Part shown: in pieces, positions 8,255 to 63,303 of the stretch
How the letters are laid out: every line of letters starts with the position of its first letter
How positions within the stretch are numbered: position 1 is the first letter of the stretch
DNA from: Candidatus Aminicenantes bacterium UBA1061
GTDB taxonomy: Bacteria > Acidobacteriota > Aminicenantia > Aminicenantales > Saccharicenantaceae
Length of the DNA: 64,000 nt
Direction: 5' to 3'
NCBI GenBank assembly: GCA_002316315.1
Contig: DCDG01000037.1
Location: forward strand, 21,967-85,966
The notes under the pieces: model-generated
Told to the model about the DNA's origin: nothing
The model's input: the letters and a program-made list of their open reading frames with translations, nothing else
The model's database searches: none
Made by a program: the position numbers and the translations under genes

Positions 8255-9241
8255 ATGAACAAAAACTTTTTCGTAGAAAGAAAATTAGAAGCAGTCGAGA
8301 AAGCTCTGACTAGGTTGTCTCCCTTTGCTTCTAATTGCTGTCTGTGCCCACGTCATTGCCGCGTCGACCGGATAAGCGGACACACGGGAATCTGTCAGAC
8401 AGGCGACCAGGCCCGGGTCTCGACCAGTTTGCTTCATTTTGGCGAGGAGCCGGTTCTTAGCGGCCAGGGCGGTGCAGGGAAAGTGGGCGGCTCAGGCACG
8501 ATTTTTTTTGCCGGCTGTAACCTGAAATGCCTTTTCTGCCAGAACTACCAGTTGAGCTGGCTTAACCAGGGACATCCAGTCAGCGATGAACAACTGGCCA
8601 GTTTTATGCTCAAGCTCCAGGCTCAGGGCGCCCTGAATATCAATCTGGTCTCTCCGACTCACGTTGTTATCCCTATCCTCAGAGCCCTTAAAATTGCTTA
8701 TGCCCGCGGACTAACTATTCCCATTGTTTATAACTCCAATGGATATGACTCCATCGAGGTCATAGAAGAACTCAGGGGCATTATTGATATCTACCTGCCT
8801 GATTTGAAATATGTGTCTTCGGAATTATCAAAAAAATATTCAGCGGCACCGGATTATTTTGAACAAGCCAGGCTGGCGATTCAAGAAATGTATTGCCAGC
8901 AGCCAGAGCTAATCCTCGATAATCAGGATATTGCCGCCCAGGGTTTGATTATTCGCCATCTAATTCTTCCCGGCAGTTCAGATGATTCAATGCAGATTGT
9001 TGATTGGATAGCACAAAACCTATCTACCTCAGTTGGGCTAAGTTTGATGAGTCAGTATCACCCCTGCTTTAAAGCTCCATCTGAGCTTCAAGGCGAGGTT
9101 AGCCGCCGGGAATACCAGAAAGTTATGGCCCGGGCTACCGCTTACAATTTTAGTTATCTTTTTCTTCAACCAGAGCCTTTTCTATCCGACGAGCATCTGC
9201 TACCTGACTTCCACCGGCAGAATCCTTTCCGCTGGAAATAG
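8255..9241 (+). CDS. Radical SAM enzyme, PflA-like / AmmeMemoRadiSam-type
   Basis: CxxxCxxC radical SAM motif in AGCNLKCLFCQN. An N-terminal extra Cys cluster CCLCPRHCRVDRISGHTGIC is characteristic of AmmeMemoRadiSam-system rSAM enzymes. Length 328 aa. A TATAAT-like -10 box lies upstream at about 8190. Confidence 0.6.
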   Translation: MNKNFFVERKLEAVEKALTRLSPFASNCCLCPRHCRVDRISGHTGICQTGDQARVSTSLLHFGEEPVLSGQGGAGKVGGSGTIFFAGCNLKCLFCQNYQLSWLNQGHPVSDEQLASFMLKLQAQGALNINLVSPTHVVIPILRALKIAYARGLTIPIVYNSNGYDSIEVIEELRGIIDIYLPDLKYVSSELSKKYSAAPDYFEQARLAIQEMYCQQPELILDNQDIAAQGLIIRHLILPGSSDDSMQIVDWIAQNLSTSVGLSLMSQYHPCFKAPSELQGEVSRREYQKVMARATAYNFSYLFLQPEPFLSDEHLLPDFHRQNPFRWK

Positions 9242-51792: not shown

Positions 51793-52623
51793 TTACTTTT
51801 TTTGACCCCGTGGATAATTAGGTCCAGGTCCGAATTCTACAGAAGGTGTGCTCCTTATAGGCTGCGGGAACAAGTCCATCAATTTAAAGACCTCAGGTGG
51901 AACATCGGTCGTAACTTTCAAGCCCAGCTCTCGGGCCACATCAACAGAAATCGGAAAATCATGGGTCCAGTGTCCCCTCGTCAAACAATCTGAAATCCTT
52001 TTCTTTTCTTCGAGAGGATAAGTCTCAGGTAATAAGTTAATGATGCCGTTTTCTAGCTGGTTGATCGCTTTTTGAGAAATATCGGCTAAGATCAAAGTTT
52101 CATCATCAATCTCAGCCATTGGCTTTTGCTTGAGGACATTTACAATGGAGGGAGCCGGATATTTATCAATTTGAGGATCAACCGGACCAAGAACCGAGTG
52201 TTCACCCAAAGCTATTTCATCAGCAGCCAGAGCAATAAGCGTACCACCAGACATAGCATAGTGAGGGACATAAATCGTAACTTTTCCTTTATGTGCTCTT
52301 ATAGCTCTGGCTATCTGCAGAGCAGCTAAAGCAATCCCGCCTGGTGTATGGAGTATCAAGCTAATTGGCGTATCCGCATCAGTTGTCTGGATCGCCCGAA
52401 TAACTTTTTCTGAATCATTGATATCAATATAGCGCATGATGGGAAAGCCGAGTACGCTCATGGTCTCCTGGCGATGGATGAGGGTAATCACTCTGGACTT
52501 GGTTTTCTTTTCAATGCGTGAGATTAAATTCTGTCGAGAAGCCTTCAGGATTTCCTGCTTAATGACCGGCTGCAAGGCCGAGATCATAAAAAATAAAATC
52601 AGGATATTAAAGAAGACATTCAT
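51793..52623 (-). CDS. ClpP-class / SDH (S49-like) periplasmic serine protease
   Basis: N-terminal TM. ...LILHTPGGIALAA... and YAMSGGTLIALAADEI... motifs of the SDH/ClpP-like serine protease clan. Confidence 0.55.
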   Translation of the reverse strand: MNVFFNILILFFMISALQPVIKQEILKASRQNLISRIEKKTKSRVITLIHRQETMSVLGFPIMRYIDINDSEKVIRAIQTTDADTPISLILHTPGGIALAALQIARAIRAHKGKVTIYVPHYAMSGGTLIALAADEIALGEHSVLGPVDPQIDKYPAPSIVNVLKQKPMAEIDDETLILADISQKAINQLENGIINLLPETYPLEEKKRISDCLTRGHWTHDFPISVDVARELGLKVTTDVPPEVFKLMDLFPQPIRSTPSVEFGPGPNYPRGQKK

Positions 52624-52844: not shown

Positions 52845-53984
52845 TTAATAAATCCTGGAGACGATGAATTCCTTTTCCCCCGATTCTTTCTCTCTTACCC
52901 AGTAAAGGCAGCTATTCATTATCCTGGCCAGAATGCGGCTGTCGGCAAAAAATGGCCCGAGGCTGACTGTTTTTACCAGGTCACCTTCGGGACTGATAAT
53001 GTCATAAAGATATTCACCTTCCTTCTGTCCACGCTCAAAAGTCATGACAAAAAGATATCCATTTTCATCAGTGAAGAAAGAATAATAAGGTAGAACCTGA
53101 TCAGGGTAAGTCAGTCTAAAGCCCCACCGGGAAAGGGCCTCCAGCTCATTTTTCATTATCTTCTTATATTCATTAAAGCCGTTAGATTTTTTGAGCGGCC
53201 TTGAAATCTTTTTGATTAATTTCCCATTGAGGTCAAAACAAAGAAAGGCGTAGCCTCTTTCCGGGTAGCCTGAATAGATTCTGTCAGCGGAGAGATTGTA
53301 AATAATCTGATGGGGAGTAGCTTCTACTGATTTTTGAAGGAAAGGGTTGGCATAGCTCAGGCGATCAAGCTCCCCAATTTTTTTCAGCCCTGAATCATAA
53401 TGGTTGAGACAAACCAGCCATTCTTTGACCTGAGCCCCAACGATTGATTCCAGACCTATAAAGTGCTGGCCCGGTAAAGGACATAAAGAGCCGAGCTCTC
53501 CCTCATATCTTGTCTCACTGAGGAGCTGGCCAGCCGGGCTAAAGATGGCCATTTTTCTTGCCCCAGAGTCCTGAATAAAAATATTCCCCTCGCTGGTTAG
53601 AAATATTTCATAAGCATTGTCAATTTCGCCTGGGCCCTGTCCCTTCCTGGCAAAACTTCTTATCAGGTGTCCATTTTTATCCAAGACAAAAACCTTATCC
53701 GACTGGCTTTTGCCATTGATGATATAGATGTTGCCGGCAGAATCAACCGCGAAATTATTGATATCAAAGAGGCCTCGATCAATTAATTCCTTATTTCCTG
53801 TATCAATTTGCAGCTTTTTCTCCAGACGAAAAGATGAATAAATTTTTTTAACATCAGAAGCCTCATTCGCCGGAGCCATTAATGGACTCAAGACAGGGCA
53901 GAGGAAAATAAAGAAAATTATAAGAAAAGTTTTCCCATAAGCGGATATCCTGCCAGGAGAAGATCTTTTTCGCTTCACAGCCAC
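52845..53984 (-). CDS. 6-bladed beta-propeller family secreted protein (paralog A)
   Basis: Signal peptide. Repeated NHL/propeller-like blades. The RKGQGPGE motif is shared with the paralog at 60169..61287 (RKGYGPGD). Probable GTG start with GGAGG RBS. Confidence 0.55.
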   Translation of the reverse strand: MAVKRKRSSPGRISAYGKTFLIIFFIFLCPVLSPLMAPANEASDVKKIYSSFRLEKKLQIDTGNKELIDRGLFDINNFAVDSAGNIYIINGKSQSDKVFVLDKNGHLIRSFARKGQGPGEIDNAYEIFLTSEGNIFIQDSGARKMAIFSPAGQLLSETRYEGELGSLCPLPGQHFIGLESIVGAQVKEWLVCLNHYDSGLKKIGELDRLSYANPFLQKSVEATPHQIIYNLSADRIYSGYPERGYAFLCFDLNGKLIKKISRPLKKSNGFNEYKKIMKNELEALSRWGFRLTYPDQVLPYYSFFTDENGYLFVMTFERGQKEGEYLYDIISPEGDLVKTVSLGPFFADSRILARIMNSCLYWVREKESGEKEFIVSRIY

Positions 53985-54689: not shown

Positions 54690-54967
<278 letters not shown>

Positions 54968-55517: not shown

Positions 55518-58133
55518 CTACACTCCCTCAGGATAAAAGAATGCATTCAACAGGAATTTGTAGGTTCCATGAGATTGAGCCCGGTGTTGGGCCCTGAAGC
55601 CGATTAGAGCAATATGTCCTCTGCCGCTTTTTACATCCACCACGGCTGCTTTCCGGCTAAGATATTCCTCACCCATCAGCCAGCCACTCAGCAGAATATT
55701 ATCTTCGGGATAATAGGCTACCACTTTTCTGTCCATCTTGGCAGGAGGGGCCCAGGTATCCAGGGCCAGGCTTTGATTGAAAAGGGCAGCAGTTTCCTCC
55801 GCCAGGCCGTAGCCAAGGGGTGTGGTATTATCAACTTTGAGCCTCAGAATAGAGACGGGGCAGAAGAATTTGCTGCGGTCAACACCACTAAGGGAATTTC
55901 TGGCCGGAGCACCCAGCTCACTCATGGCCAGCTCGCTGGCCTGATTAAGAGTCACCAGTATTCCACCAGCCTCGACGAAAGCTTTCAGGGCATCAACTCC
56001 CTCCTGCCCGATGCCTCCTTCATATTCTGGCGGCATCTGACTCATAAAAAACCGTGCCGGTTGACCTGGACGTTGAAAGCGGCCTGTTTTAATAATTTCT
56101 GGATTCTCACTGGCCAGAAGGATGACATCAAAATTGGCTTTGAGATCGACTTTTTTAGTTTTTGTACCTTTAAAATCCTGGTTGTGAAGAATAGTATAGG
56201 TAAAACCTAAGTCATCCAGCATACACCTGGTCCAGCCTTCATCGGCATTACCGCGCCAGGATTGGTAAATAGCAATTCGCGGAAATTTAATGGAAGCCTT
56301 ATCAATAGAGGATATATTGGCAAGGGATTCAACTGGAACTGGCCACTTTTCCAGAAGCCCGGAGAGAGTCTGCCTGACAACAGGCGAATTTTTGATTAAA
56401 AAAGCTCCAGCCGGTAGCTCTGTCTGCCCTGTCTTAAGCATGTTTTTCGCTCGCCACATTTCTGCCTTATTCTTGAGGAGGCCAAAAGCCACAGTATAAG
56501 AAACATTGAGTCTGGGATCGAGCGCCAGGTAAGCTGAATCAGGTATATTGGCCTTAGGATATTGAACTCTATCCACTTTATTTAATGGCACCTCAAATGC
56601 TTTATCTATCTGGTCGCAGCGAACACCCATCTGAAGAGGCAGTGTCCAGGCAGCGTTATCATAAGGTGGAACAGGTGGACCGCCAGGATACTGGCGTAAA
56701 TCTGGATATTTCTGCTTTTCAAGTAGCGCCCAGGCATAAGCTTTATTAGGCTGGGCAACCAGAACAACAAAAGAACCAGCCGGATAAAACCTGCCGTCGC
56801 CAATAAAATCCCTGGTGGCCTGATACACTTCTACTCCACCCAGCTGCAGAATTTCAATCATCTTAAGGGTGGTTAGATAGTCGGGTTGGTCTTTGGTGAT
56901 GACAAAGGCATAGGGTTGATTTCTATCCTTAACTTCGATGCTCTGCTTTGACATCAAATAGGAGTTATAAAGAAAATCCTCCTTGTTCAGCCAGGCTGTC
57001 TTGACCAGGCTTTTCGACAGAACCAGCTCATAGTCAACTATATCACGCAGACGCCACCAGCCACCGGGCCAGGGATCAAGGAAATCCATTCTTTTTTCAT
57101 AATAGTCTTTTGAAACTTCTGTTGGTTCAATATAAATCGGAGTAGCCACTCTGACCGAGGCCGCCTCGCTCAACAGACCCACAACATTATGCAGCCAGGA
57201 GGTGTCATCACAGGAACCAATCCACCAGCCGGTGTAGCTGCGGCCATTGACCACGCCTTTATAGTCATTCTTCTGCAAATCATAGGCCATATTAACACCG
57301 CAGAGATTGACACTCCGCCAGAGCAAGGGCTGGATATTGGGCAGAGGGGGATCCATAAAGGGGGGGACAAAGAGGCGAGCGCCATTAGAGCCCATCTGAT
57401 GTTCATCTATATGAATCTGAGGGAACCACTCATGGTAAAGAACCCTGGTCACCGCTCTTGTTTCGGCCAGATTCAGCATAAAGAAATCACGGTTATTGTC
57501 GTGGCCAGCATAGTGATGATAAAGCCAGGGCATGTTGCTCCCTTCATACTCAGTTCCGAGATACTTACGGTACCAATCGACAACCATCTGCTGGCCATCA
57601 GGATTGATGGAAGGACAGAGAAGCACAATAACATCATTAAGGGCTTGCTTCACATCGAAAAAGCCCTGACCGGTGATAAGATCATAAGCCAGCTCCATAG
57701 CCATTTGAGAGGCTGCTATTTCGGTCGAATGGATGTTGCAGGTAATAAGCAAAATGGCCTTACCTTTCTTAGCCAGCTGCCTGGCCTCGTCTGGAATTAA
57801 TCCCCGAGCTTCTTTCAGGCGGCGGGCAATTTCCCGGTAACGGTCAATATTCTTCAAATTATCTTCACTGGAAATAACGGCCATGATCATGTCCCGGCCC
57901 AGGGTGGTTTGGCCGATGTTGAACACAGTCAGCCTGGGCGACTCTTTGTCCAGTAGCTCAAAATAAGCTTTAATCTGATTGTAATCAGCTAATTTTCTAT
58001 CCTCGCCGACTCTGAAACCCAGAAATTTATCAGGCGGCGTCTGAGCTGAAAGAAAACATGGCATCATTGCTGTAAAAAATAATAAAGCCAAAACCAATAT
58101 TGGCTTTAAGGGGCGAAAATTTCTATCAGGCAT
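55518..58133 (-). CDS. Peptidase M14 family zinc carboxypeptidase, large secreted multidomain
   Basis: Signal peptide. N-terminal M14 domain with zinc ligands HSTE (HxxE) and a later His. 871 aa with C-terminal extensions. Confidence 0.65.
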   Translation of the reverse strand: MPDRNFRPLKPILVLALLFFTAMMPCFLSAQTPPDKFLGFRVGEDRKLADYNQIKAYFELLDKESPRLTVFNIGQTTLGRDMIMAVISSEDNLKNIDRYREIARRLKEARGLIPDEARQLAKKGKAILLITCNIHSTEIAASQMAMELAYDLITGQGFFDVKQALNDVIVLLCPSINPDGQQMVVDWYRKYLGTEYEGSNMPWLYHHYAGHDNNRDFFMLNLAETRAVTRVLYHEWFPQIHIDEHQMGSNGARLFVPPFMDPPLPNIQPLLWRSVNLCGVNMAYDLQKNDYKGVVNGRSYTGWWIGSCDDTSWLHNVVGLLSEAASVRVATPIYIEPTEVSKDYYEKRMDFLDPWPGGWWRLRDIVDYELVLSKSLVKTAWLNKEDFLYNSYLMSKQSIEVKDRNQPYAFVITKDQPDYLTTLKMIEILQLGGVEVYQATRDFIGDGRFYPAGSFVVLVAQPNKAYAWALLEKQKYPDLRQYPGGPPVPPYDNAAWTLPLQMGVRCDQIDKAFEVPLNKVDRVQYPKANIPDSAYLALDPRLNVSYTVAFGLLKNKAEMWRAKNMLKTGQTELPAGAFLIKNSPVVRQTLSGLLEKWPVPVESLANISSIDKASIKFPRIAIYQSWRGNADEGWTRCMLDDLGFTYTILHNQDFKGTKTKKVDLKANFDVILLASENPEIIKTGRFQRPGQPARFFMSQMPPEYEGGIGQEGVDALKAFVEAGGILVTLNQASELAMSELGAPARNSLSGVDRSKFFCPVSILRLKVDNTTPLGYGLAEETAALFNQSLALDTWAPPAKMDRKVVAYYPEDNILLSGWLMGEEYLSRKAAVVDVKSGRGHIALIGFRAQHRAQSHGTYKFLLNAFFYPEGV

Positions 58134-58681: not shown

Positions 58682-59371
58682 TTAATCGCGGGAATTGCGG
58701 ATGAGGATCATTCGCAGCAGCTGAATAGCAGCCATGGCGGTAGAAGCCACATAAGTCATAGCTGCCGCTTTAAGCACACTCCTTGCCCCATCAATCTCCT
58801 TGGCATTCAGAAAGCCTCTTTCCTGAAGAATGGCCAGCGCCCGGTGAGAAGCGTTAAACTCAACCGGAAGAGTAATCACTGTAAAGAAAACGGCGGCGCT
58901 GAAAAGCATAATACCGATATCCATCAGGATACTCGGGCCATGTCCACTAAAAAGCAGGCCGATAAAAAAAAGTGGAAAGGCCAGATTTGAGCCTAAACTG
59001 GCAATAGGATAAATAGCATTGCGCAAAGCCAGAAAAGCATAGCCCTGAGCATGCTGAATGGCATGGCCGGCCTCATGAGCGGCAACGCCCAGAGCAGCAA
59101 TTGATGGACTATCATAAACACCCTCAGACAACCGAAGCACTTTTGCCTTCGGATCATAATGGTCAGTCAGGTGACCGCGGGTTTTTTCGATGCGGACGTT
59201 ACTGGCCGGACTGTATTTTAAGATTTCGGCCACAGCCTCGGCCGCGGTCATTCTGGAAGATGAAACTATCTGACCGAAACGGGCAAAAGTTGATTTTACC
59301 TTGTTTTGAGCATAAATAGCAAAAATCAGAACTGGAAGCAACAGCCAGATAGTGTAATCAAAATAAAACAT
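58682..59371 (-). CDS. Membrane zinc metallopeptidase (PF04298-like, HExxH)
   Basis: N-terminal TM, AAHEAGHAIQH motif, and C-terminal TM helices. Length 229 aa. Confidence 0.6.
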   Translation of the reverse strand: MFYFDYTIWLLLPVLIFAIYAQNKVKSTFARFGQIVSSSRMTAAEAVAEILKYSPASNVRIEKTRGHLTDHYDPKAKVLRLSEGVYDSPSIAALGVAAHEAGHAIQHAQGYAFLALRNAIYPIASLGSNLAFPLFFIGLLFSGHGPSILMDIGIMLFSAAVFFTVITLPVEFNASHRALAILQERGFLNAKEIDGARSVLKAAAMTYVASTAMAAIQLLRMILIRNSRD

Positions 59372-59532: not shown

Positions 59533-59919
59533 TCACTTTTCCAACACCTTGATAGCCTCATCAATGTTGGACACATCGAGAATGACAGAAATGGCATTGG
59601 CCACCTGGCTCAGCGTTCCATAGCAATATTCAACATTGATTCCCTCATCACCGATTTTTGTCACCACCTCAGCTAAGGCCCCGGGCTTATTTTCCAGGTG
59701 AACAAGCAAAACATCACGGAGTTCGGTGGTATAATTCAGCTTGCTCAGGATTTTGACCGCTTTGTTAAGGTTTTTAACATAAATTTTGGCTGTATCCTGA
59801 AAAACACCGATAGCTTCAACATTGATATCGTTTTCAGCCAGCTGACTCAGCATCTCTCCCAAGACTGATGGCTTATTCTCCAGGATGACAAAAATTTCCG
59901 TAATTCTTTCAAAGTCCAT
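59533..59919 (-). CDS. Tandem ACT-domain protein
   Basis: Two repeats of an ACT-like unit (ILENKPSVLGEMLSQLAENDINVEAIGV / HLENKPGALAEVVTKIGDEGINVEYCYG). Length 128 aa. Confidence 0.6.
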   Translation of the reverse strand: MDFERITEIFVILENKPSVLGEMLSQLAENDINVEAIGVFQDTAKIYVKNLNKAVKILSKLNYTTELRDVLLVHLENKPGALAEVVTKIGDEGINVEYCYGTLSQVANAISVILDVSNIDEAIKVLEK

Positions 59920-60168
59920 TATCTCCTCCCCTGTTGTCTAATTTTTCCCATACTATCCTCGCCATATTTAAAGAAGCTTTATAATTATTTATTAGTCCAT
60001 TAAATAAGATTTTTCAACTGAAATTTATTAAAAATCTGGGTAGGACAGCTAACTAAGACCAATAAACCGATAGTTTACAATGACCAGATCCGAACTAAGT
60101 CCAATATGGCCAAAAGCTCAGGACTACTATTAGCGAGCAAATTAACACCAATATTATCAGATTTTTCT

Positions 60169-61287
60169 TCATCTCAGCCTGTACTTATAGACCGTATAGA
60201 TGCCCTCCGTGCCGATTGACTCTTCAGAAAGGCAATAAAGAGTTTTTTTATCCCTGTCATAATAGATATCAGGCCGCTCATAAGTACTGCTGAAATTTTC
60301 TAAAAGGGCTTCTTTCAAAAATGTCCCCTTATGATCGTACATCTGGAGAAAAGAGTTCCACCTTGAAGTTTTATTGTCAAAATTAGTATAAATAACCCCC
60401 ACTATATCTGAATCAGCAAAGATCTTACAAATCCAGGACATCTTTTTGTGCCAGTTTCTGTACTCTTCCAGATTACGTTCAATATAGGCTTTTTTATATT
60501 CACCATAGACTTTTGGCTGGATGTATCTTTCAGTTTTCTGAGAAAACCTGGTGTGGACCTTAGTGGTCAGGTCTATTTTGATGATATCCAGGTTAGCTGT
60601 CCAGATAAAATAAGCATCATTCCCGTAATAATCACAATAGATCCAGGGTGGTAAGATTATCAGGTCAGGAATATCCCGGGGATTTCCTTGGCTATTAATT
60701 TTTTTAAAGTCAATTGGTTTTACACCTTCTCCCAGCTGCAATTCATAAGGCAGAAGATAATCACGGCTGCCATTGGTCATATCTATAGCAAAAAGGATGT
60801 AAGCTTTGTCAGCATTTTTATCGGTGATAGGCAACCTGGCAATTAATACCTTATCTTTTTCGTCGATCAGTCTTGCCCCCAGAACAGAAGTTACAATAGT
60901 CTCCTTAATCTGCTTGAAATTTAAGTCCTTATCAATATTATAAATAAACAATTTTTTTGTCCCCATATCCGAGATCAGCAATTTCCCATTTTTATAGTCT
61001 TGAAGCCACGGTTCTACAAAGTCACCAGGTCCGTATCCTTTCCGGCCAAAAACGCGGGCGGCCTGGCCTTCAGCATCAAAGATCTTAAAATCGCCGGCCC
61101 GGCCATCAGAGATGATAACAAAGCCCTTTTCTGTCACCACAAAACCTCTGGGAAAATCAATAAAGAAGCCTTCCCTCTGCTCAAGCCGGGTTTTCCCTTC
61201 GTAGATTATATCTATAGCTGCTAATGATTCTGCAGTAAATAAAACAAAAAAGAATACGCCTAAAACGGACCTTTTTATTTTATTCAT
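60169..61287 (-). CDS. 6-bladed beta-propeller family secreted protein (paralog B)
   Basis: Signal peptide (…FTAESLAA). Homologous blades to 52845..53984. Its start ATG overlaps the stop of an upstream small ORF (ATGA). Confidence 0.55.
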   Translation of the reverse strand: MNKIKRSVLGVFFFVLFTAESLAAIDIIYEGKTRLEQREGFFIDFPRGFVVTEKGFVIISDGRAGDFKIFDAEGQAARVFGRKGYGPGDFVEPWLQDYKNGKLLISDMGTKKLFIYNIDKDLNFKQIKETIVTSVLGARLIDEKDKVLIARLPITDKNADKAYILFAIDMTNGSRDYLLPYELQLGEGVKPIDFKKINSQGNPRDIPDLIILPPWIYCDYYGNDAYFIWTANLDIIKIDLTTKVHTRFSQKTERYIQPKVYGEYKKAYIERNLEEYRNWHKKMSWICKIFADSDIVGVIYTNFDNKTSRWNSFLQMYDHKGTFLKEALLENFSSTYERPDIYYDRDKKTLYCLSEESIGTEGIYTVYKYRLR

Positions 61288-61347
61288 GCGAATTTAGTAG
61301 ATAGAACAGACTCTATAATCTTTTTTTGCCTTGTTTTAATTGAATCA

Positions 61348-61539
61348 TTAACAGCAGTCTCCTGAGTGAGTGTCACGACACCAGCATAAACTAAGATCAC
61401 ATTCATAGCGTCTATATCCCCGTGCTTTACATAGTGGATCATCGAAGTACATCCCTTTAACTTCTGGCATATTGGCTCTAGCCTTAATAGCAAAGTTCGG
61501 AACGGCAATAAAACAGGAAATAACCACGCACAAAACCAT
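61348..61539 (-). CDS. Small secreted Cys-rich peptide (signal peptide plus a 6-Cys C-terminal region), hypothetical; alternative frame 61284..61550
   Basis: ATG-initiated 63 aa: MVLCVVISCFIAVPNFAIKA | RANMPEVKGMYFDDPLCKARGYRRYECDLSLCWCRDTHSGDCC. The overlapping 88-aa frame (TTG start at 61550) has an ATGA stop/start overlap with the propeller gene instead. Only one of the two is likely real. Confidence 0.3.
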   Translation of the reverse strand: MVLCVVISCFIAVPNFAIKARANMPEVKGMYFDDPLCKARGYRRYECDLSLCWCRDTHSGDCC

Positions 61540-61887
61540 AATCCAGACAAGACTCTTTTTCCTTATTTCTTTTCCTGCTTAATTATAAAAATTATATTTA
61601 AATTTTTCCATTTTTGGCGATATCACGTCTGACTGCTTATTTTTAACCATTGGCATTTTTTTGCTTCAGCTGGCCTTTTTCATTTGCCTCCTTTGTTAGG
61701 ATAAAAAAAAAGACCTTTGTCAAGTATTTTTTTAACTCAATGAATGGGCTTATGATCCCAGGAAAAGATTTATATAACCGGAGGCTGTTTCTCCCTCTTG
61801 CCTTCGCCAGAGGAAGAAGCCGAATAGACAGGCTTCTCAACAACTTTCATTTTTTACCCCTATTACCCTTCTATCCCCTTGCCTCTT

Positions 61888-63303
61888 CTAAAATATCTTC
61901 CCGGGGTTGAGAATGCCCAGAGGATCAGCAGCCTGCTTGATTTTCTTCATCAGTTCAATCTGGCCTGCCTCCATGGTCAAAGGGAAATAAGTCTTTTTGT
62001 AAAGGCCAATGCCATGCTCGCCCGAAATAACCCCGCCTCGCCCGGCTGCATCCTGAAACAGCTCCTGCCTGGCCATTTCCAGTTTGTCTTTTACTTCCTC
62101 AACATTAATCGGCACCATCTGGCCATTTTCATACCTCGCCTTCATCAGATGAGTATGGACATTGCCATCGCCGGCATGCCCGAAAACCGGCAGCCATAAT
62201 CCGTATTTTTGAGCTACTTCGTGAATCTTCTTCACATGCCCGGCTATTTCTGAACGTGGTACACAGGTATCCAGGATATCAATGGTCTCTTTTTTTATCG
62301 CTTCATAAATCTCAGACCGGATTTTCAGGACTTCATCCTGTTTGGCCGCCGTATCGGCCACAAAAACATCCAGGGCCCCATTTTCGAGCACAATATCAGC
62401 AATTTCGTCTGTTAGCTTCCCCAGGTTTTCTTCTGAAGCTGCATCAACAATAATCATAAGATGCATGTCTCCTGAATGAGTTGGCCAGTTCAAATTAAGA
62501 TGTCGTTCACTGAGGCTGATCACATCCAGGCCAGCAAATTCGACCGCCATGGGCAGAATACCCCTATCAAAAATGAGCGGCACATTATCTATAGCCTGCT
62601 CGATGCCATTAAAAGGGATAACCATTGTCCGTAGAAAAGTCGGCCGACTCATCACCTGAACAATGGCTCTGGTGATAACGCCGAGTGTGCCCTCAGAGCC
62701 AATAAACAAATTCACCAGGTTATAACCAGACGAATTTTTGATAAGCTTGCCGCCGGGATGGATGACCTGCCCATCGGCCAGGACGACTTCCAGCCCCCTG
62801 ACATAATTACGTATTCCGCCGTATTTTACCGCCCGGCTGCCGCCAGCGTTGGTGGCAATCATCCCGCCAAACATCGCTCCTTCATCTCCGGGATGAGGGG
62901 GAAAATAAAATCCCTGCGCTTCCACCTGCCGAATAAATTCGCCCAGTGTTAGCCCGCTCTCTACCACCGCTACCTGATTTTTCCGGTCAAGCTCCAGGAA
63001 CTTATTCATCCTCTGGAAGCTCAACACCACGCCTCCATAAATCGGCACACAGCCCCCGGCCAGGCCGGTTCCACCACCGCGCGGCGTGACAGGCAGTTGG
63101 TACTCACTGGCCAGCTTTAAAATGGCCGAGACGTCTTCTACCTTCCCCGGCCTGACCACCGCTTCGGGCTGGCAGCCCTCCTGGCGGCAGACATACTCAT
63201 CGTTAGCATAGACGCCGACTTCCTCCAGGCAAGTAATCACATTATTTTCGCCGACTATTGATTTCAGCTGACCGATGATTTCCTCGTTGATTTTCCCATA
63301 CAT
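61888..63303 (-). CDS. FAD-linked oxidase (GlcD / D-lactate dehydrogenase family)
   Basis: FAD-binding PCMH domain motifs (PRGGGTGLAGG, GSEGTLGVIT). Length 471 aa. Confidence 0.8.
   Translation of the reverse strand: MYGKINEEIIGQLKSIVGENNVITCLEEVGVYANDEYVCRQEGCQPEAVVRPGKVEDVSAILKLASEYQLPVTPRGGGTGLAGGCVPIYGGVVLSFQRMNKFLELDRKNQVAVVESGLTLGEFIRQVEAQGFYFPPHPGDEGAMFGGMIATNAGGSRAVKYGGIRNYVRGLEVVLADGQVIHPGGKLIKNSSGYNLVNLFIGSEGTLGVITRAIVQVMSRPTFLRTMVIPFNGIEQAIDNVPLIFDRGILPMAVEFAGLDVISLSERHLNLNWPTHSGDMHLMIIVDAASEENLGKLTDEIADIVLENGALDVFVADTAAKQDEVLKIRSEIYEAIKKETIDILDTCVPRSEIAGHVKKIHEVAQKYGLWLPVFGHAGDGNVHTHLMKARYENGQMVPINVEEVKDKLEMARQELFQDAAGRGGVISGEHGIGLYKKTYFPLTMEAGQIELMKKIKQAADPLGILNPGKIF

Follow-up and report, generated by a model that had tools for sequence, protein, structure and literature searches.

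We analysed a 64,000-nt stretch of contig DCDG01000037.1 from Candidatus Aminicenantes bacterium UBA1061 (the window), on whose minus strand a gene for a small Cys-rich, putatively exported peptide lies directly upstream of a gene for a six-bladed β-propeller. Comparison with orthologous loci, gathered from genome and metagenome collections and by exact-protein look-ups (L and P numbers below denote loci and proteins), places these two genes in a cassette of three: the intact ancestral unit encodes a Cys-rich peptide, an NHL-type propeller and a CPxC thioredoxin-like protein, and belongs to the Aminicenantes (Candidatus Saccharicenans and relatives). The window copy is probably a decaying remnant or pseudogene, with its peptide gene crippled, the hairpin that often follows this gene in intact cassettes absent, and its thioredoxin-like gene deleted. 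We hold these statements of identity and erosion with high confidence; the overall reading, which adds an inferred mechanism for the intact cassette, we regard as moderately probable.

An earlier note on this DNA had listed a 372-aa propeller, a 63-aa open reading frame (ORF) and an overlapping 88-aa ORF with a TTG start, and all three are present where it placed them. Because the propeller homologues and their genome records are labelled Candidatus Saccharicenans, Candidatus Aminicenantes or Acidobacteriota, the window does not come from Bacteroidota; its host is a Candidatus Saccharicenans-like Aminicenantes bacterium. Flanking synteny is preserved around the cassette, with a flavin adenine dinucleotide (FAD)-linked oxidase gene upstream and ACT-domain and Zn-peptidase genes downstream.

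The peptide gene spans 61348..61566 (-) in its ancestral reading frame, which is conserved in 13 lineages. Read from the first ATG (61539..61537), the window encodes the 63-aa ORF MVLCVVISCFIAVPNFAIKARANMPEVKGMYFDDPLCKARGYRRYECDLSLCWCRDTHSGDCC at 61348..61539 (-), with the hydrophobic N-terminus, six Cys within the last 27 residues and DCC end that the earlier note described. Searches with tblastn and hidden Markov models (HMMs) showed that in 13 distinct lineages a peptide homologue directly precedes the orthologous propeller (the window, L126-128, L135, L136/137, L004, L002, L048 (=L129-132), copy 2 of L001/L047, L051, L133, L147, L142 and L144). The propellers of these lineages range in identity from 91%, the value for L126-128 against the window, down to well below 50%; in L001/L047, which have two propeller copies in tandem, the peptide gene precedes the second. 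To judge by this distribution, the pairing of peptide and propeller is beyond chance. The Cys pattern, on whose conservation the earlier note had staked its proposal, is kept in the orthologous loci, and deep comparisons of the peptides gave ratios of nonsynonymous to synonymous substitution rates (dN/dS, or ω) of 0.13-0.3, with dS saturated. No gene is called at the peptide position in the L126-128 records. The proposal that a secreted peptide is co-transcribed with the propeller thus stands as a genuine gene association in 13 lineages; co-transcription itself is only presumed.

The choice of frame is decided by the relatives. The 88-aa TTG ORF (61284..61550, -) does exist in the window, and its end does form an ATGA overlap with the propeller start, which the earlier note took for classic translational coupling of one of two alternative frames. 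This frame carries 2-6 in-frame stops in most relatives (L126, L002, L048, L001, L051, L133, L147, L142 and L144); in L004 it is open across the peptide gene and terminates ahead of the propeller start. It has no family matches, and its seeming conservation in close relatives is due to its overlap with the real frame. We conclude that the 63-aa frame is, on comparative evidence, the real coding frame, because it is conserved in relatives while the 88-aa frame is interrupted by stops. The 88-aa ORF is a spurious alternative frame and its ATGA overlap accidental, since the frame stops in relatives and ends before the propeller in L004; that it is a real gene coupled to the propeller is scarcely credible.

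Intact peptides are 67-77 aa long and consist of a K/R-rich N-terminus, an 18-20-residue hydrophobic helix ending ..(P/S)NF.., an A-x-A-type site and a Cys-rich domain of about 40 residues with the consensus PEVxG..DD..C..GG(W/Y)RC..C..CWCRD..SG(D/E)CC. The n-region reads KK or RKK, and A-R-A, A-V-A, A-Y-G, L-D-A or L-K-A stands ahead of the conserved PEVxG/IEG. Peptides of the core clade share PNF..KARA..PEVxG...DD..C..GG(W/Y)RC....C..CWCRD..SG(D/E)CC, within which CWCRD and SGDCC are invariant. The intact homologues P0021, P0022, P0024 and P0018 have seven Cys, against six in the window ORF. The family is tiny: a profile search of 5.8 billion proteins yielded 11 clusters, and an exhaustive HMMER scan of 1.84 billion representatives yielded 6 representatives. 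Its distant members P0029, P0031 and P0027 each have a propeller directly downstream on their contigs, and in L142 and L147 the third, thioredoxin-like gene is present as well. No peptide matched a Pfam or NCBIfam family, NVEALA and GG-type precursors included, beyond noise at E<=1.

Several other assignments for the peptide were considered and rejected. A type IV pilin-like N-terminus was suggested by ..IAVPNF.. and by a noise-level NCBIfam PilA match (E 0.17), and the pilin signature (G-1/E+5; G/F-T-L-I-E pattern) occurs in no member of the family. The peptides of the window, L048, L001 and L006 do not match NVEALA (PF14055) at E<=1, and no NVEALA motif is visible in them. An AlphaFold2 model of the peptide reached a mean predicted local distance difference test score (pLDDT) of 70, with 56-68 in the C-terminal domain, too uncertain to justify a fold search. 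We also dropped the idea of an intermolecular disulfide between the 'odd' seventh Cys and the invariant Cys218 of the propeller, because the number of Cys spans 4 to 10 across members.

Downstream of the propeller lies the third gene of intact cassettes. The propeller stop overlaps the start of a 156-166-aa ORF by 4 nt in L002, L048, L051, L001 copy 2, L126/127, L135, L133, L142 and L147, and also in L052/L053, where the contigs begin inside the propeller, so that the peptide region is not covered. A transmembrane helix lies at the N-terminus of the encoded protein; the (F/Y)FHSHDCPxC motif is invariant, as is, further on, a ..(S/T/W)P.. loop followed by a β-strand-like segment. Sub-threshold but consistent evidence suggests that this layout is a thioredoxin fold with a cis-Pro-type loop: the protein matches Thioredoxin_8 at E 0.025 (15 bits against a cut-off of 27), its best sequence match in the PDB is 4yod, a 'thioredoxin-like protein' (E 0.073), and hhalign sets FLYFHSHDCPEC in register on LVDFWAEWCGPC of E. 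coli TrxA (E 7e-4, probability 26%). The pair of propeller and thioredoxin-like genes recurs in the distant loci L055 (1-nt overlap), L058 (4-nt overlap) and L060 (3-nt gap), at which no homologous peptide was recognised.

What the window keeps of this membrane-anchored CPxC thioredoxin-like gene is a 25-codon remnant (MKKNLIILVLICSLIVVLSFWPYWT) at 60095..60172 (-). Its ATG overlaps the propeller stop (ATGA), and its first 20 residues match the N-terminus of the full gene in L048, L002, L001, L126, L135 and L133. In blastn comparison, window 61900..60111 corresponds to L126 56..1845, and window 60037..59542 to L126 2532..3029; at the junction between them (60038..60110, -), 73 nt of unmatched sequence stand for 686 nt of L126, which hold thioredoxin-like codons 22-165 and the downstream spacer. 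In the closest relatives a 165-aa gene still separates the propeller from the ACT and Zn-peptidase genes named above. The alignments thus indicate that the window underwent a recent deletion of about 0.6 kb that removed its thioredoxin-like gene.

The peptide gene of the window is eroded too. Intact relatives have an ATG eight nt past AAGGAGG; in the window the ancestral start position (61566..61564) reads ATA, and alignment of the upstream regions shows the Shine-Dalgarno at the same position weakened to AAGCAGG (61574..61580, -). The first ATG lies nine codons downstream without a Shine-Dalgarno of its own, and the KK n-region is lost if it is used. The codon of the conserved Cys2 (61410..61408) is CGC, encoding Arg. 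The change from ATG to ATA is common to the window and L126-128 and is not a sequencing error, because these three independent metagenome contigs share it. Lesions differ among the sisters: L126-128 combine the ATA start with loss of Cys4, L135 has lost Cys4 and Cys6, and L136/137 have a TGA stop at Cys2 and three further Cys lost. L002 has an N-terminal frameshift, and L004 keeps an intact peptide and has a deletion that fuses the propeller to the thioredoxin-like gene. Within the window sub-clade the dN/dS of the peptide is 0.5-1.3, against 0.29-0.41 for the adjacent propeller, on small counts (for example 10 nonsynonymous versus 2 synonymous differences). Expression of the window peptide is probably poor or absent.

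Could the window gene nevertheless still function, starting at ATG 61539 to give a 63-aa pre-peptide whose six Cys are joined in three disulfides by general cellular machinery? The frame is still open, the promoter-like box upstream is intact, and in both the window and L126 the change from ATG to ATA at codon 1 is accompanied by a change from GTG to ATG at codon 10, which could be compensatory. The new ATG has no Shine-Dalgarno, however, and the old one is 35 nt off and weakened; a start there would forfeit the positive n-region. The ω of the sub-clade is about 1, each sister loses different Cys, with a nonsense codon in L136/137, and the window also lacks the thioredoxin-like gene and the hairpin. 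We therefore consider a functional window peptide rather unlikely, and favor decay.

The hairpin is a frequent feature of intact cassettes. A stable stem-loop lies directly 3' of the peptide stop in seven lineages (L048, L001 copy 2, L147, L142, L144, L051 and L002), with energies, given as the minimum free energy of folded spacer windows of 80-150 nt, of -18 to -49 kcal/mol (-18.0 in L002) and z of -1.7 to -5.0. The sequence differs by lineage, and the stems are not canonical terminators because no U-runs follow them. Spacer folding found no such hairpin in L133, the window, L126, L135 or L004; the spacer between peptide and propeller in the window (61288..61347, -), which is without the stable hairpin of intact cassettes, folds at -6.4 kcal/mol (z +1.07).

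Upstream of the peptide gene, the box ATACTTGACAAAG (61715..61727, -; TTGACA at 61723..61718) is identical in the seven aligned upstream regions, both L001 copies included. Some 135 nt separate it from the Shine-Dalgarno downstream, and Saccharicenans-type loci also have a conserved AT-rich leader of about 135 nt; the box may serve the cassette as a promoter or operator. A sigma-70 scan marks TGGAAA-17-TATAAT just ahead of the Shine-Dalgarno, promoter-like matches in the upstream region are no commoner than in shuffled sequence, and Rfam at its gathering thresholds finds no RNA family in the conserved leader. In two divergent lineages, L133 (3163..3984) and L147 (3..623), a gene for an AraC-family helix-turn-helix regulator lies directly upstream of the cassette.

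The propeller gene itself (60169..61287, -) is intact and under purifying selection in the window, with dN/dS of 0.29-0.37 against the closest relatives. It encodes a secreted 372-aa protein whose signal peptide ends ..ESLA|A. The earlier note had called it a six-bladed β-propeller, and the AlphaFold2 model bears this out, with a mean pLDDT of 90 and about 24 strands from a 16-sequence alignment. The best PDB matches of the model are the exported six-bladed propellers BVU_1028 (3s9j, DUF4221) and BF0058 (4raa) of Bacteroides (Foldseek E 1e-10 and 3e-10, template modelling score about 0.55-0.6), followed by the NHL domains of Brat, TRIM71 and TRIM2 (E 1e-9 to 1e-8). The sequence profile of the propeller family matches 4raa at E 1.4e-6, the NHL domain of TRIM2 at E 2e-20, and Thin, TRIM71 and Brat at E 1e-14 to 1e-18. 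The Bacteroides propellers are of a different phylum and about 12% identical to the window propeller. A match to PF17170 (DUF5128), the family that the earlier note had named for the propellers, was found at E 0.005, but its 16.5 bits lie under the 22.9-bit gathering threshold; several orthologues carry weak precomputed matches to the same family. The propeller has an invariant Cys218.

For the intact cassettes we propose a mechanism of client, platform and oxidoreductase. The peptide would be exported by Sec and cut by signal peptidase I after A-x-A, the propeller would be exported by its own signal peptide, and the thioredoxin-like domain would be anchored outside the cytoplasm. After maturation the Cys-rich peptide would dock on the periplasmic propeller and be handed to the anchored thioredoxin-like partner, whose CPxC motif would form or reshuffle the peptide's disulfides; the hairpin 3' of the peptide gene would lift the peptide transcript over those of the two helper genes. 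The folded peptide might then act in antagonism, in signalling, or in a metal or redox role. The binding and disulfide-handling steps are suggested by the coupled propeller and thioredoxin-like genes, which recall the fused NHLRC2 and SOQ1, where a redox motif lies in the cleft between thioredoxin and NHL-propeller modules, a cleft proposed as the binding site of a partner (PMC6107167; 10.1101/2021.03.16.435614). The scheme also accords with peptide-toxin loci, such as those of the bacteroidetocins, that encode a thiol oxidoreductase of their own (PMC6671954). We offer this mechanism tentatively, at somewhat less than even confidence.

The comparison with NHLRC2 and SOQ1 may be taken a step further. 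Like these proteins, the cassette joins a thioredoxin-like module to a six-bladed NHL-type propeller in an extracytoplasmic or lumenal setting, and SOQ1 is membrane-anchored, as is the cassette's thioredoxin-like protein. In contrast to the fused modules of NHLRC2 and SOQ1, those of the cassette are separate polypeptides, translationally coupled through the 4-nt overlap; the active site is CPxC instead of CC(I/V)NC, and the cassette carries an adjacent candidate client peptide. Bacterial NHLRC2 homologues have no conserved operon context (PMC6107167). Neither NHLRC2 nor SOQ1 matches the propeller profile at sequence level or appears among the top 50 structural matches of the propeller model, and the likeness is, as far as the comparison goes, architectural. 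That the intact cassette is a split, three-gene bacterial form of the NHLRC2/SOQ1 redox module, with its client peptide encoded upstream, is a speculative proposal that we think unlikely as it stands.

A number of points weigh against our reading. Signal cleavage was judged solely from the residues at -3/-1. At 18-20 residues the h-region is long, and for a signal peptide its ..NF.. shows unusual conservation; the N-terminus may instead anchor the peptide permanently in the membrane. Family members have anywhere from 4 to 10 Cys, which means that a fixed disulfide framework is not universal, and the thioredoxin-like assignment lies under curated thresholds. An ATG acquired at codon 10, which L126 shares, and the open frame of the window copy make some residual expression of its peptide conceivable. 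Finally, the propeller is retained without the peptide or the thioredoxin-like gene in L001 copy 1, L003, L049, L050 and L138; it therefore has a peptide-independent role, or these copies are relics as well.

The last of these points bears on the main rival explanation, that the cassette is a Sec-dependent bacteriocin or toxin locus, in which an antagonistic peptide would be matured by the thioredoxin-like protein and the propeller would serve in self-protection or immunity, or as a receptor decoy. Repeated decay that spares a propeller under purifying selection would then leave 'orphan immunity' behind, and rapid change at non-Cys positions around a conserved Cys scaffold, the hairpin after the structural gene and the AraC-type regulators upstream in L133 and L147 would all suit such a locus. 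Between L048 and L001 copy 2 the peptide has a dN of 0.145 (ω 0.83) and the propeller a dN of 0.08 (ω 0.21), the ω resting on small counts (22.5 nonsynonymous and 7.5 synonymous differences). Among peptide toxins, sublancin (BdbA/BdbB) and pediocin (PedC) are encoded at loci with a thiol-disulfide oxidoreductase of their own. Bacteroidetocins (class IIf), whose hosts lack general disulfide machinery, likewise require for activity a dedicated thiol oxidoreductase carried in their loci (PMC6671954). As in the cassette, a small Cys-containing exported peptide is encoded there beside its own thiol oxidoreductase; bacteroidetocins, however, rely on a GG leader, an ABC transporter of the C39-peptidase type and a protein with five transmembrane segments, whereas the cassette peptide bears a Sec-like signal and its neighbours include an NHL propeller but no transporter. 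No lysis or typical membrane immunity gene is found in the cassette either, we know of no NHL propeller described as a bacteriocin immunity protein, killing activity is not known for the peptide, and translational coupling joins the propeller to the thioredoxin-like gene, not to the peptide. Lacking a transporter, a known immunity gene and a known activity, the toxin reading ranks as the main rival and not as the lead; we judge it unlikely, if well short of negligible.

Strict adjacency and gene order over large divergence would also be expected if the peptide belonged, as a stoichiometric small subunit, to a periplasmic propeller enzyme, perhaps cofactor-bearing or metal-binding, with the thioredoxin-like protein as its assembly factor. 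Methylamine dehydrogenase (MADH) combines a seven-bladed propeller heavy chain, MauB, with a Cys-rich light chain, MauA, and its cluster encodes the thioredoxin-like assembly factor MauD; the light chain has 130 aa, 12 Cys and a tryptophan tryptophylquinone cofactor made from two Trp, and MADH needs MauG and MauE as well. The likeness of a propeller, a small Cys-rich exported protein and a membrane-associated thioredoxin-like helper is plain, the QHNDH beta and gamma subunits may be likened to the cassette as well, and CWCRD and SGDCC of the core clade, like propeller Cys218, are invariant. Yet the propeller is six-bladed and of NHL type, where MADH has a seven-bladed heavy chain, the only Trp of the peptide is replaced in some members (CLC in P0026, TCFS in P0029), and no gene like MauG or MauE, or for an rSAM-type (radical S-adenosylmethionine) cofactor-forming enzyme, was found in or near the cassettes examined. 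We rejected MADH-type enzyme identity on the blade number, the variable Trp and the missing MauG; a subunit role of any kind, which the solitary propellers of many lineages and the expression pattern implied by the post-peptide hairpin (non-stoichiometric) also disfavor, we consider improbable. The earlier note had likened the pair to peptide-plus-propeller cassettes near RiPP (peptide made by ribosomes and modified after translation) or bacteriocin-like systems of Bacteroidota, in which the peptide would be a precursor matured by an rSAM/SPASM or similar enzyme. The weak PF17170 similarity of the propeller, its best structural matches 3s9j and 4raa from Bacteroides, and a radical-SAM gene near the solitary propeller locus L138, on the opposite strand, lean that way. 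The analogy fails at the cassettes themselves: the host belongs to the Aminicenantes, 0 of 13 peptide-bearing cassettes has an rSAM/SPASM gene, none has a C39 transporter, and the peptides have a Sec-type N-terminus without a GG leader and match neither NVEALA, GG precursors nor any other family. We consider this explanation most improbable. Nor could Bacteroidota peptide-propeller cassettes be tied to the locus by way of a human-gut Bacteroidales locus (L107), which holds degenerate propeller fragments and nothing informative.

Within the libraries and the full-text collection searched, we found no description of the peptide family, the 160-aa CPxC protein or the three-gene arrangement, and the cassette appears to be undescribed. 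If the proposed mechanism is true, it would represent a compact system of client peptide, NHL propeller and thioredoxin-like partner in uncultivated anaerobes that possibly lack classical Dsb machinery. If it is indeed a split form of the NHLRC2/SOQ1 module, it would provide the first genetically defined client for modules of this type, and would amount to a system dedicated to the oxidative folding or redox handling of a new family of peptides in anaerobic Aminicenantes; it might also illuminate how NHLRC2 and SOQ1 use their interface cleft. For annotation, the small ORF that gene callers overlooked is real, and the copy in the window is best regarded as a probable pseudogene or remnant. That the peptide and thioredoxin-like genes have decayed repeatedly and independently with the propeller kept is an evolutionary pattern that deserves explanation.

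Decay can also be followed within one genome. In a metagenome-assembled genome of Candidatus Saccharicenans the cassette is tandemly duplicated (L001 4965..8550, =L047). From copy 1, the syntenic one, the peptide gene is precisely gone and the propeller is now joined to the peptide's Shine-Dalgarno and first codons, a fusion that is the source of the N-terminal extension of P0003; 12 codons of the thioredoxin-like gene are left. Copy 2, downstream, is complete. At L138 (2381..6107) an orthologous propeller, P0009 (54% identity), stands alone without the peptide or thioredoxin-like gene. The radical-SAM gene just upstream of it on the opposite strand is probably a coincidental neighbor; another DUF5128 propeller lies near, and an N6_N4_Mtase/ThaI restriction-modification pair downstream. 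In the window itself, the sole ORF with a radical-SAM-type CxxxCxxC motif (GCNLKCLFCQNY) is at 8255..9241 (+), about 50 kb from the cassette and unlinked to it.

The second propeller paralog of the window (52845..53984) has no peptide gene, as the earlier note had observed. It is distant from the cassette propeller, with 32% identity over 72 aa, and passes PF17170 with 35 bits. The ORF-free 1.5-kb gap upstream of it contains a large bacterial signal recognition particle (SRP) RNA (Rfam RF01854, 162 bits; 54697..54963, -), so no gene or peptide lies there.

Small ORFs that resemble the peptide gene in one respect or another occur at more distant loci. At L007 (3570..3863, +) an 88-97-aa ORF with 10 Cys and no signal peptide, containing ..YDWRCENCWPCKTSC.. 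reminiscent of the core ..GGWRCWECPCHTCWC.., sits between the C-terminus of an AraC-type regulator and an array of genes for distant propellers; it may represent a diverged relative of the peptides that is not of the Sec type, or a chance ORF. At L006 (4698..4919, +) and L061 (1253..1435, +), small ORFs adjoining distant propeller homologues (24-34% identity) have similar N-termini (..VISFLNFTAVKSDA.. and ..ITFSISTFISVE..) and 2 Cys, and score under the threshold of the family profile; the pairing of peptide and propeller may thus extend past the recognisable family. A 1158-aa low-complexity protein, P0030, has at least 7 repeats of D.SCA.GGLGCY...CR(F/Y)C and matches the Cys core of the peptide profile over 29 residues (E 1.5e-4); the common C..GG.GC....C motif may reflect a small fold, or chance.

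Predicted peptidases are abundant around the cassette in the window. They comprise a ClpP-like SDH-type serine protease (51793..52623), a signal-peptide-bearing protein of 871 aa with an M14 carboxypeptidase domain (55518..58133) and a Zn_peptidase_2 membrane protein (58682..59371), all on the minus strand; the gene for the last is syntenic with the cassette in L126, L135 and L004.

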